IMG/VR virus record: IMGVR_UViG_2585427766_000017
Source of the DNA: a virus
Lineage: Duplodnaviria > Heunggongvirae > Uroviricota > Caudoviricetes
Direction: 5' to 3' (one strand)
Length of the DNA stretch: 5,659 nucleotides
Positions 1 to 5,659 of the stretch are shown here, one piece after another. Under the pieces are notes generated by a model, which saw nothing but the letters and a program-made list of their open reading frames with translations, ran no database searches and was not told the DNA's origin. Position 1 is the first letter of the stretch, and each line of letters starts with the position of its first letter. The position numbers and the translations under genes were made by a program.

Positions 1-2053
1 TGGCTGATTAAAACGGAACTGCTGGAAACGCAGACCGTGGACTTCAGCGTGGGTGCGGAAGGGCTTCGCCATGTACCGGGGGATGTCATTGAAATCTGCG
101 ATGATGACTATGCGGGTATCAGCATCGGCGGGCGCGTGCTGGCGGTGAACAGCCAGACCCGGACGCTGACGCTCGACCGTGAAATCACGCTGCCATCCTC
201 CGGTACCACGCTGATAAGCCTGGTTGACGGAAGTGGCAATCCGGTCAGCGTGGAGGTCCAGTCCGTCACCGACGGCGTGAAGGTAAAAGTGAGCCGTGTT
301 CCTGACGGCGTTGCCGGATACAGCGTGTGGGGGCTGAAGCTGCCGACGCTGCGCCAGCGCCTGTTCCGCTGCGTGAGTATCCGTGAGAACGATGACGGCA
401 CGTATGCCATCACCGCCGTGCAGCATGTACCGGAAAAAGAGGCCATCGTGGATAACGGGGCGCACTTTGACGGTGACCAGAGCGGCACGGTGAATGGTGT
501 CACGCCGCCAGCGGTGCAGCACCTGGCCGCAGAAGTCACTGCAGACAGCGGGGAATATCAGGTGCTGGCGCGATGGGACACACCGAAGGTGGTGAAGGGC
601 GTGAGCTTCCTGCTCCGTCTGACCGTAACAGCGGACGACGGCAGTGAGCGGCTGGTCAGCACGGCCCGGACGACGGAAACCACATACCGCTTCACGCAAC
701 TGGCGCTGGGGAACTACAGGCTGACAGTCCGGGCGGTAAATGCCCGGGGGCAGCAGGGCGATCCGGCGTCGGTATCGTTCCGGATTGCCGCACCGGCAGC
801 ACCGTCGAGGATTGAGCTGACGCCGGGCTATTTTCAGATAACCGCAACGCCACATCTTGCCGTTTATGACCCGACGGTACAGTTTGAGTTCTGGTTCTCG
901 GAAAAGCGGATTGCGGATATCAGGCAGGTTGAAACCAGCGCCCGCTATCTTGGCACGGCGCTGTACTGGATAGCCGCCAGTAGCAATATCAAACCGGGCC
1001 ATGATTATTATTTTTATATCCGCAGTGTGAATACTGTTGGCAAATCGGCATTCGTGGAGGCCGTCGGTCGGGCGAGCGATGATGCGGAAGGTTACCTGAA
1101 TTTTTATAAAGGGTTGATCAATAAAACACATCTCGCCAAGGAACTGTGGAAAACATTGATAACGGAAGATAACGCCAGCTGGCTGAAATCAGGACGTCCA
1201 TTCGAAAGAGTGAAAGGACGCCAACAAGAAATGGAAGACCATGTGGGGCGTCAAAATTGAGCAGACCAAAGACGGCAAACATTATGTCGCGGGGCTTGGC
1301 CTCAGCATGGAGGATACGGAGGAAGGCAAACTGAGCCAGTTCCTGCTGGCAGCAGACAGGATTGCGATGATTAATCCTGCAAACGGGAATGAAACGCCGA
1401 TGTTTGTGGCGCAGGGCAACCAGATATTCATGAACGACGTGTTCCTGAAGCGCCTGACGGCCCCCACCATTACCAGCGGCGGTAATCCTCCGGCATTTTC
1501 CCTGACACCGGACGGGCGGCTGACGGCGAAAAATGCCGATATCAGCGGTAACGTGAATGCGAACTCCGGGACGCTCAACAACGTCACGATTAACGAGAAC
1601 TGTCGGGTTCTGGGAAAATTGTCCGCGAACCAGATTGAAGGCGATCTCGTTAAAACAGTGGGCAAAGCTTTCCCCCGGGACTCCCGTGCACCGGAGCGGT
1701 GGCCATCAGGAACCATTACCGTCAGGGTTTATGACGATCAGCCGTTTGACCGGCAAATTGTTATTCCGGCGGTGGCATTCAGTGGCGCTAAGCATGAGAG
1801 AGAGCATACTGATATTTACTCCTCATGCCGTCTGATAGTGCGGAAAAACGGTGCTGAAATTTATAACCGTACCGCGCTGGATAATACGCTGATTTACAGT
1901 GGCGTTATTGATATGCCTGCCGGTTACGGTCACATGACACTGGAGTTTTCGGTGTCAGCATGGCTGGTAAATAACTGGTATCCCACAGCAAGTATCAGCG
2001 ATTTGCTGGTTGTGGTGATGAAGAAAGCCACTGCAGGCATCACGATTAGCTGA
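1..2053 (+). pseudogene. J: Tail-tip host specificity protein J (lambda gpJ family), 5'-partial and disrupted: central portion in frame 1 (1..1260) and C-terminal receptor-binding portion in frame 2 (about 1214/1241..2053)
   Basis: Frame 1 is open from nt 1 (the GTG at 37 is only the first start-like codon, not a real start) and reads [41 protein letters not shown]...[64 protein letters not shown]...[34 protein letters not shown], which I recognise as near-identical to the central, FN3-like region of lambda J (from memory). Frame 2 ORF 1241..2053 reads [30 protein letters not shown]...[45 protein letters not shown]...DMPAGYGH, matching the lambda J C-terminal region. The two parts are in different frames, and frame 2 carries TGA stops at 1184-1186 and 1211-1213, so no single ORF spans the gene. 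Confidence 0.85.
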
Positions 2054-2773: not shown

Positions 2774-2784
2774 GTGGGGTGAAT

Positions 2785-4295
<1,511 letters not shown>

Positions 4296-4296
<1 letters not shown>

Positions 4297-4925
4297 TGGA
4301 AGCAGTGGACTTTATTACTGCGGTCAGAAATGCCGCTTACAACGAATATGGTGCTATCACCTGCGAGGTTCAATTTGAGGGGGCCGTGGATGCCAGAGGG
4401 GAGCCGAAATGGTCTCCTTTTACGGCCACATCCTTAGATGTTACGGACTATGGCCGACAGCTTTACCATGATCTGGTAAATGGCAAATATGGCGAAGTCA
4501 CCCCATTCTCAGTCACACCTGAGATACTGGAAAGAGAAAAAGCAGCCAGGTGTGAAGAAATTAATCTCTGGCGCGACCAGCAGGAGAATATCGAATACCT
4601 GATGGAGTTTAACGGTCGTCGCTGGGATTACGGCAAGCACACAAAGGAGCGAATTTCAACATCGCTGACCGTTGCCAGAAGCGGGCAACTACCTGAGGGT
4701 TTTGCCTGGACAGATGGCGACAACAATATCGTGCCGGTCACGGCGGCTGAACTGCTGGCTCTGGGGGATGCCATTGAGCTGGCGATGTTCAACAAAGGTG
4801 TGGAAATAAATACCCGCCAGCTGCAGATGAAGGCTGAGGTCAGCGCGCTGCAAACGCTGGAGGAGATTCGGGGTTACGTGGTTGGATGGGCGCATGAGCA
4901 GGTTCACGACACCCGCAATTCTTGA
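4296..4925 (+). CDS. Hypothetical protein in the tfa position; putative tail fibre assembly/chaperone or accessory protein (possibly DUF4376-like, unverified)
   Basis: 209-aa ORF whose ATG (4296-4298) overlaps the stf TAA stop (4294-4296), giving a TAATG translational-coupling junction, with a GAGGGTAAGG Shine-Dalgarno-like stretch just upstream. It occupies the position of tfa in lambda, but I see no similarity to the lambda Tfa sequence. Confidence 0.6.
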
Positions 4926-5271
4926 AATGCTGGATGACTACCGCTGGCGACTGGTGGAACCGTTTGAATTCTGGCTCACGGACGAGCCGGAAGATGTTAT
5001 CAGCGTGCCGGCAGGTTACGTCACTGACCTGGCAAGCGTACCTCGCATCCTGTGGGCGATATTTCCTCCGCACGGGCGTTATGCCAAGGCTGCAATCATT
5101 CACGACTGGATGTACGACAATGGGCTCCGGACAAAAAGAGAGGCAGACAGGATTTTCCTGGATGCCATGAAGGTGCTTAAGGTACCTGCCTGGCGGCGTC
5201 TGATGATGTACTGTGCTGTACGTCTCTTCGGGCGGGGTAACTACGAACCGATACATCAAAAAACAATGTGA
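4894..5271 (+). CDS. DUF1353-like hypothetical protein (phage tail-region accessory protein of unknown function)
   Basis: ORF in a different frame that overlaps the 3' end of the 209-aa gene. It contains PAGYVTDLASVPR...AAIIHDWMYD, which resembles the motif I associate with DUF1353 proteins. The start is ambiguous: TTG 4882 (ORF-track start), ATG 4894 (chosen here), or ATG 4927, which lies one nt after the upstream TGA stop (4923-4925). Confidence 0.6.
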   Translation: MSRFTTPAILEMLDDYRWRLVEPFEFWLTDEPEDVISVPAGYVTDLASVPRILWAIFPPHGRYAKAAIIHDWMYDNGLRTKREADRIFLDAMKVLKVPAWRRLMMYCAVRLFGRGNYEPIHQKTM

Positions 5272-5410: not shown

Positions 5411-5659
5411 TTAGTGAGCAAACCACTCGTCAGCAGACTCCCAGGTATCTTTCAGAGTTTCCTGAACAAAAGTTTTAGCTGAATCTTTATCGGCGGTGCG
5501 CGTAACAGAAAGGCCATCGTTGCTGGTAGCTTTTACGATCACCTCTACATCGTCATAACGTTTACTGATGCGTCGGGTTAATTCTTCCTTTAACGCATCC
5601 ACAGCACCGGTTGGCATTTTAGTCATTTTTTCTTTGGCTATGCAGATTTCAATACGCAT
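5411..5659 (-). CDS. dinI: DinI-family DNA-damage-inducible protein (RecA/SOS modulator homologue), complete; start codon is the last 3 nt of the window
   Basis: 82-aa minus-strand [14 protein letters not shown]...[20 protein letters not shown]...LSV...[11 protein letters not shown]. It matches the E. coli DinI pattern MRIE..IAK...P.GA.DAL..EL.RRI...LSV...QETWESADDWF in length and in N- and C-terminal signatures. Confidence 0.85.

Follow-up and report, generated by a model that had tools for sequence, protein, structure and literature searches.

The tail-tip attachment protein J of phage lambda (PDB 8XCJ, 8XCK and 8IYK) uses LamB as its receptor, and in the lambda model three receptor-binding domains (RBDs) insert loops into the porin trimer and spread at their base, the straight fibre is twisted, the shaft flips and the tube opens (PMC11101478). 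The J ‘specificity region’ (lambda residues 960-1132) recombines often enough for its phylogeny to be decoupled from that of the remaining J sequence, and residues 1012 and 1107 within it are hotspots for indels (PMC6646904). Brödel et al. (Nature 2024; PMC11338833) fused the J C-termini of natural Escherichia coli prophages to lambda J at residue 964, and two of the chimeras, A8 and 1A2, delivered DNA into ΔlamB ΔompC cells only when OmpC was supplied. OmpC dependence of the Stx2a phage phi330 has been demonstrated with Keio mutants and complementation (PMC12502783). Here we analyse the J gene in a 5,659-nucleotide (nt) stretch of viral DNA, IMG/VR record IMGVR_UViG_2585427766_000017, which corresponds to nt 1-5659 of contig JOQO01000036.1 (assembly GCA_000714135.1) and is referred to in full as the window. 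Positions are counted from its first letter, and features lie on the plus strand unless stated otherwise. Very probably, positions 1598-2050 encode a standard, widely shared OmpC cassette of the 1A2 type, carried in a J gene that has been broken by private lesions, within a decaying prophage near yecD.

The receptor domain and its closest counterparts

The start of the contig truncates J, and the window holds the 3’ two-fifths of the gene (1-2053; open reading frame (ORF) list and Pfam). Its distal part is an orphan ORF of 270 amino acids (aa) at 1241-2053, recognized from the ORF list, matches to PDB sequences and Pfam, whose start Met corresponds to lambda M862 and which comprises the central straight fibre and the RBD of J (straight-fibre and shaft names follow PMC11101478). 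Alignment with lambda (NC_001416) gave 109/119 identical residues (91.6%) between ORF residues 1-119 and lambda J 862-980, and 63/152 (41.4%), with one single-residue gap, between ORF residues 120-270 and lambda J 981-1132. The same step is seen in the DNA, where identity to lambda per 100 nt is 93-99% at 101-1100, 62% at 1101-1200, 83-98% at 1201-1500 and 81% at 1501-1600, then 45-60% from 1601 to the stop codon. This pattern is far beyond chance and confirms an earlier first-pass annotation, made from the letters of the window, that had described the C-terminus of J as mosaic relative to lambda. In the identity profiles, the conserved body of J gives way to the exchangeable receptor-binding cassette at a junction at ~1545-1607 (lambda residues ~964-984); DNA differences begin at about 1545, and protein differences begin after the motif NVTINENC at about 1607, so that the start at 1560 given in that annotation was a fair estimate.

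The straight-fibre part (beta-prism; 1241-1597, from alignment and Pfam) scores 101 bits with PF09327, above the cut-off, over ORF residues 1-111, directly upstream of the RBD. The RBD itself (1598-2050; alignments and Pfam) belongs to the Ig-like family PF12421 (Ig_GpJ_C), which it matches with 129.5 bits against a cut-off of 26.2, over profile positions 1-135 of 135 and ORF residues 140-270 (1658-2050). It also aligns end to end with the lambda domain (tblastn E = 4e-29). The earlier description of the last ~150 residues as retaining only scattered motifs was thus right about the divergence but understated the relationship, given the full-length PF12421 match and the end-to-end alignment with a gap of one residue. 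In lambda J the gene is intact and the receptor is LamB; the window shares with it the gene position, the Ig-like RBD family and the domain order FNIII, alpha-helical shaft, straight fibre and RBD, and is 92% identical up to residue 980. High identity to the LamB-binding lambda RBD, with its loops L1-L4 that insert into LamB, was not found: at 41.4%, the window domain differs at lambda residues 1012, 1049 and 1107, with an indel at 1103.

Among PDB sequences, the closest solved chain is not lambda J (8xcj/8iyk, E ~1e-106) but ‘A8 gpJ 713’ (9wca and 9wcb; E = 2.4e-128), and 9wcb also contains OmpC. The A8 domain is the same as the J domain of phi330. Relative to the A8/phi330 type, the window RBD is 59-60% identical, and its straight fibre is 93% identical to that of the A8 construct; the two share a fold family and the porin receptor OmpC (9wcb complex solved; PMC12502783).

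A much closer counterpart is gpJ 1A2. Its published sequence was available as machine-read supplement text with dropped letters (PMC11338833) and was compared by frameshift-tolerant alignment, in which 136 of the 143 legible codons of the domain were identical to the window, with no indels. Two differences alone are credible, R187K and Y229H, the window having Arg187 and Tyr229 where 1A2, as read, has Lys and His; the other mismatches reflect text corruption, including an impossible in-frame stop. Loop lengths are equal at all three variable sites, the NNWYP hairpin is shared, 1A2 carries Asn at residue 245 as the window does, and the junction with the J body lies in the same region. By its sequence, then, the window domain is the 1A2 allele. 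The objects themselves differ in that 1A2 is a working engineered fusion with demonstrated use of OmpC, whereas the window gene is natural DNA that is broken upstream.

According to its source data, the 1A2 chimera failed on three of 23 natural OmpC variants (G1, G2 and G40), the other 20 giving 76-99% GFP-positive cells; of the two variants characterized in detail, the chimera works on EDL933 OmpC and not on MG1655 OmpC (PMC11338833). A8, in contrast to the 1A2 type, delivers on K-12 OmpC (PMC11338833). The 1A2 chimera is in use for building gut-targeted DNA delivery particles. Since the receptor of the near-identical 1A2 allele is known to be OmpC, the novelty that had been proposed for the window domain falls: a J of known receptor matches it, and the allele is very common. 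Alignment to J domains with known receptors, which had been suggested as a check, likewise returned near-identity to 1A2, with 59% for A8/phi330 and 41% for phage 434. The accompanying suggestion of a receptor other than LamB agrees well with the OmpC-dependent delivery by the 1A2 domain. The domain of this copy, Tyr229 included, would on sequence grounds be expected still to bind OmpC.

Like the window gene, the J of phage 434 (h434) is a lambdoid J whose C-terminal specificity domain is exchangeable, and it uses OmpC; with an RBD 41% identical and ~5 residues longer (468 versus 453 nt matched), it forms a separate allele class. The J of phage 21 was rejected as a comparator, since it natively uses LamB and is 94% identical to lambda J at the DNA level. 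For the PhiR phages derived from the ECOR strains, which share the allele, the paper describing them gives dependence on the inner-membrane proteins ManYZ only, with no outer-membrane receptor.

An indel map of the RBD revealed three variable sites. Variable loop 1 (1676-1700) aligns with lambda residues 1007-1015, including S1012, and has four more residues than A8/phi330, at 1685-1696. In phi330 it corresponds to loop T918-Y921, for which contact with OmpC has been discussed in 434 (PMC12502783). Variable loop 2 (1790-1813) aligns with lambda residues ~1045-1052 and has five residues fewer than A8/phi330 after 1798; the counterpart in phi330 is the hairpin E953-S962, predicted by AlphaFold3 to point into the OmpC barrel (PMC12502783). 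The third site is the hairpin LVNNWYPT (1961-1984; also seen in the alignments), aligned with lambda residues 1103-1110, whose counterpart A1015-P1020 is a predicted contact of the OmpC rim (PMC12502783). The three loop differences between 1A2 and A8 coincide with the predicted OmpC loops of phi330 and with lambda hotspots 1012, 1049 and 1107, and the length changes of +4, -5 and 0 residues in the window fall exactly at the predicted phi330-OmpC contacts.

With lambda J and LamB as the analogy, a J that was intact and carried this domain would be expected to work on OmpC in the same manner. Three copies of the Ig-like domain would form the tip of the central fibre and would dock on the trimeric porin OmpC via the three variable loops; docking would then cause the straight fibre and alpha-helical shaft to rearrange, so that the tail tip opens.

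The frame break in the alpha-helical shaft

Upstream of the orphan ORF, frame 1 is open from base 1 and encodes a 5’ J fragment (1-1260) in which the last part of the hub is followed by two Ig/FNIII-like domains (PF24421, Ig_J, and PF24489, Ig_J_second) and by the beginning of the alpha-helical shaft. From about 1189 onwards this frame is off the J frame, and a TGA at 1258-1260 ends its out-of-frame tail. The J-homologous frame contains a TGA at 1211-1213, where frame 2 reads HSKE, stop, KDANKKW and intact alleles have TGG (Trp; lambda W852), and it reopens only at the ATG at 1241. With stops at 1211-1213 and 1258-1260 and the 5’ end off the contig, a continuous J frame from hub through shaft to RBD (~1130 aa) was not found in the window.

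The lesions lie in a private patch at 1141-1230, in the segment of the shaft that corresponds to lambda J residues ~831-858. The patch was delimited by the density of changes per 30 nt and by aligning it with lambda, with 2G7b and with two E. coli J alleles that are intact and share the window’s variant of this stretch. It comprises the loss of 1 nt after 1146, the loss of 2 nt after 1159, the gain of 7 nt at 1189-1195 and 13 substitutions, amounting to 13 substitutions and 10 gap positions in 90 nt between clean flanks with 0-4 changes per 30 nt. The lesions map to lambda residues ~831-852, within the shaft; in lambda J, shaft residues 841-861 refold to beta-strands on tip opening (PMC11101478). 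As a J without continuity in the alpha-helical shaft does not link the receptor domain to the hub, the patch of indels together with the nonsense codon would split J in two, and no full-length tip attachment protein would be made.

The region 1100-1240 had earlier been taken for a divergent linker marking a recombination junction. Divergent it is, but it is not an intact linker, given the frame-breaking lesions within it. Part of its divergence from lambda represents an ordinary switch to a common J allele type, the remainder is private to the strain, and the junction of the receptor domain lies elsewhere, at ~1545-1607.

No intact allele with the 1141-1230 patch was found by blastn in 5426 complete E. 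coli genomes (best match 85.8%) or in 50,697 phage records (best match 76.9%). The patch had no exact 24-mer in IMG/VR or the JGI metagenomes, nor was it recovered by gapped and exact pattern scans of IMG/VR, and in the GTDB species representatives it gave only one chance match, to a Lewinellaceae metagenome-assembled genome. A protein search with a hypothetically repaired patch, which returned only short proteins and was not exhaustive, gave best matches with the canonical sequence.

Several explanations were considered and rejected. The patch has not been copied from a Pankowvirus-type J such as that of phi330, to which there is no DNA similarity in the segment, and its substitutions are not adenine-specific, contrary to diversity-generating adenine-directed mutation. 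Programmed frameshifting would not rescue J, because downstream of the shift the homologous frame meets the TGA at 1211-1213. The differences from the nearest allele are concentrated in two short patches, and uniform neutral decay does not explain the frame-breaking one. The patch is thus attributed to a local event or, less likely, to an assembly artefact.

As its reading frames stand, J in the window is a pseudogene or fragment and not a functional member of its family, and the locus would make no functional tip. The proviso ‘if functional’, under which the domain had been discussed earlier, does not hold for the sequence as read, which yields no full-length tip from a frame interrupted upstream. 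The ORF at 1241-2053 is best annotated as part of a disrupted J rather than as a functional host-range determinant.

Spread of the cassette and alternative readings

The 464 nt encoding the domain match 3382 of 5426 complete E. coli genomes, the best copy being at least 95% identical at the nucleotide level in 2134 records. At the protein level, 53 phage records carry the domain with at least 95% identity, among them 2G7b, Stx2a-converting phages of O157:H7 and PPompW prophages. Compared with the window domain, the J of 2G7b and that of E. coli AH21B060 each have 2 of 151 residues changed (98.7% identical). E. coli UPEC-245U carries a receptor domain one aa off that of the window on a quite different J body, of the Pankowvirus type; the presence of the same domain on two unrelated J backbones identifies it as an exchangeable cassette. 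A further database protein, P0082, joins an A8-type start to a 1A2-type remainder. The window allele is among the commonest J tips in E. coli and is not new. Such a cassette would move between J backbones by recombination at the conserved joint. As the exchangeable J specificity region and its recombination were described years ago (PMC6646904), the relevance of the present result is mostly to annotation, where ‘OmpC-type (1A2-like)’ can serve as the label for such J tips.

Two residues of the domain vary or stand apart among the copies. Tyr229 (1925-1927) is encoded by TAC where all other inspected copies have CAC (His), in the motif DMPAG[H/Y]GH, and is a substitution private to the window. 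Asn245 (1973-1975) lies in the VN[N/G/D]WYP hairpin and corresponds to lambda D1107, the position needed for lambda’s gain of OmpF use; N, G and D all occur here among otherwise near-identical copies, and this polymorphism may tune the range of OmpC variants used.

A short patch in the straight-fibre part also distinguishes the window. Codon comparison with the J of E. coli AH21B060 revealed 13 in-frame substitutions in 33 nt at 1346-1378, by which LVAANRIAFIDP of the nearest J allele is replaced by another 12-residue reading. The tract reads like another J type, but at its counterpart the DNA of Pankowvirus-type J is only ~72% identical. A third J type is the probable donor, by gene conversion over a short tract. 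The orphan ORF also keeps the segment that corresponds to lambda 902-933 (nt 1361-1456), with lambda F924 present as F63 at 1427-1429. In lambda J, this segment with Phe924 is the trigger of the prophage-encoded abortive-infection nuclease HepS (PMC13043305).

Against the interpretation as a broken copy of a common OmpC cassette, the window could be taken to hold an intact, functional J with a novel mosaic distal domain and an unknown outer-membrane receptor. Such a J might be suspected from a domain only 41% identical to that of lambda in a 270-aa ORF without an internal stop; it is highly improbable, however, given the 98-99% identity of the domain to those of dozens of phages and ~2100 E. 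coli genome records, the match to gpJ 1A2 with its receptor OmpC, and the break in the J frame upstream. Nor do we expect that Tyr229 or Asn245 has shifted specificity from the OmpC variants of 1A2 to a different OmpC type or a porin other than OmpC, such as OmpF. Single J substitutions do shift lambda and phage 21, one J mutation adding OmpC for phage 21, and natural copies have N, G or D at position 245; but 1A2 itself has Asn at 245, leaving only Tyr229 as private, and this residue is in none of the three loops singled out for OmpC contact, in a gene whose break means no current host-range selection. A shift of this kind is very unlikely. Equally small is the probability that the orphan 270-aa ORF has been kept intact for a purpose, either as a host-range cassette for recombining lambdoid phages or as a separately expressed fragment that still carries the HepS-triggering segment; were the cassette role true, co-resident or infecting lambdoid phages would acquire it by recombination at the conserved flanks.

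The alternative that deserves most attention, unlikely as we judge it, is that J is intact in the living strain, that the indels and the stop around 1141-1230 are assembly or sequencing artefacts, and that an ordinary OmpC-binding tip is made. The genome is a draft, the contig begins inside J and the gene belongs to a multi-copy family, a situation open to assembly problems; the patch has no counterpart anywhere searched. The rest of J is undecayed, the 813-nt ORF differing from AH21B060 J by 12 synonymous and 6 non-synonymous codons with no stop, so that the break is either recent or not real. Indels of -1, -2 and +7 with 13 substitutions in 90 nt are nevertheless unlike short-read error, and had two real alleles been joined into a chimera during assembly, segments matching known alleles would be left, whereas the patch matches none. 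In addition, the contig is recorded in 2 samples in the database, and in the strain whose flank is nearest the prophage at this site is heavily decayed. We take the lesions to be genuine and not errors of assembly. The state of the assembly and the intact downstream ORF still count against a 1A2-type OmpC cassette in a genuinely broken J, and four further points do so as well. The OmpC contact loops are AlphaFold3 predictions for phi330 and not for the window allele. Eight domain codons of the 1A2 text are unreadable and a few others visibly corrupted, which makes the identity approximate. As for the predicted use of OmpC by the present sequence itself, residue 245 falls within a contact hairpin and Tyr229 is found in this copy alone. 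Finally, an AlphaFold2 monomer model of the 270-aa ORF (17-sequence alignment) had a mean pLDDT of 47.7, too low to use, and the fit of the ORF to the solved J structures comes from the sequence match to 9wca.

Prophage setting and neighbouring genes

The right end of a lambdoid prophage makes up the window. The prophage is located between yecE (DUF72) and yecD (L005, 5660-12053; L008, 4284-8960), and its end adjoins yecD-aspS-nudB-yebC-ruvC. The chromosomal flank is 100% identical to that of E. coli CEA106S, which identifies the host as E. coli. In CEA106S, the yecE-yecD site retains only int, xis, IS1, a partial stf tail-fibre gene and dinI. Internally deleted J fragments with this receptor domain are also frequent in the protein database (for example P0079 and P0083), and together with the decayed CEA106S site they make a broken J in an ageing prophage unremarkable. 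Side by side, the yecE-yecD sites of the source genome and CEA106S resemble a series of decay states at one attachment site.

In lambda-type prophages, lom is the gene after J. In the window, J closes the tail operon and is followed in turn by lom, stf, a tfa-like gene and dinI; lambda and 2G7b show the same succession from J through lom to the tail-fibre genes. The lom homologue (2121-2720), an Ail/Lom outer-membrane beta-barrel protein, was assigned by Pfam (PF06316, 406.5 bits) and by its position as in lambda and 2G7b. The remaining genes were assigned from the ORF list and Pfam. They are the side-tail-fibre gene stf (2779-4296; 505 aa, with a collagen-like repeat), a DUF4376 gene resembling those for tail-fibre assembly (4296-4925), a DUF1353 gene (4882-5271) and, on the minus strand at the prophage end, a dinI-like gene (5411-5659).

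A consensus scan found a terminator-like GC hairpin with a T run right after the J stop codon (2072-2101) and a second right after lom (2747-2778; likewise a consensus match only). Placed after J and after lom, these hairpins would bracket lom as a unit of its own. The stf gene is far shorter than the 2376-nt stf of phage 2G7b, and only the N-terminal domain PF08400 was recognized in its product. Its collagen-like Gly-Asp-Lys/Gly-Glu-Lys repeat, at 3727-3839, has a 9-nt period with ~12 copies and a 27-nt super-period with ~4 copies. The DUF4376 protein sits where the tail-fibre assembly gene is expected, and the DUF1353 ORF overlaps the end of the DUF4376 gene by ~44 nt.

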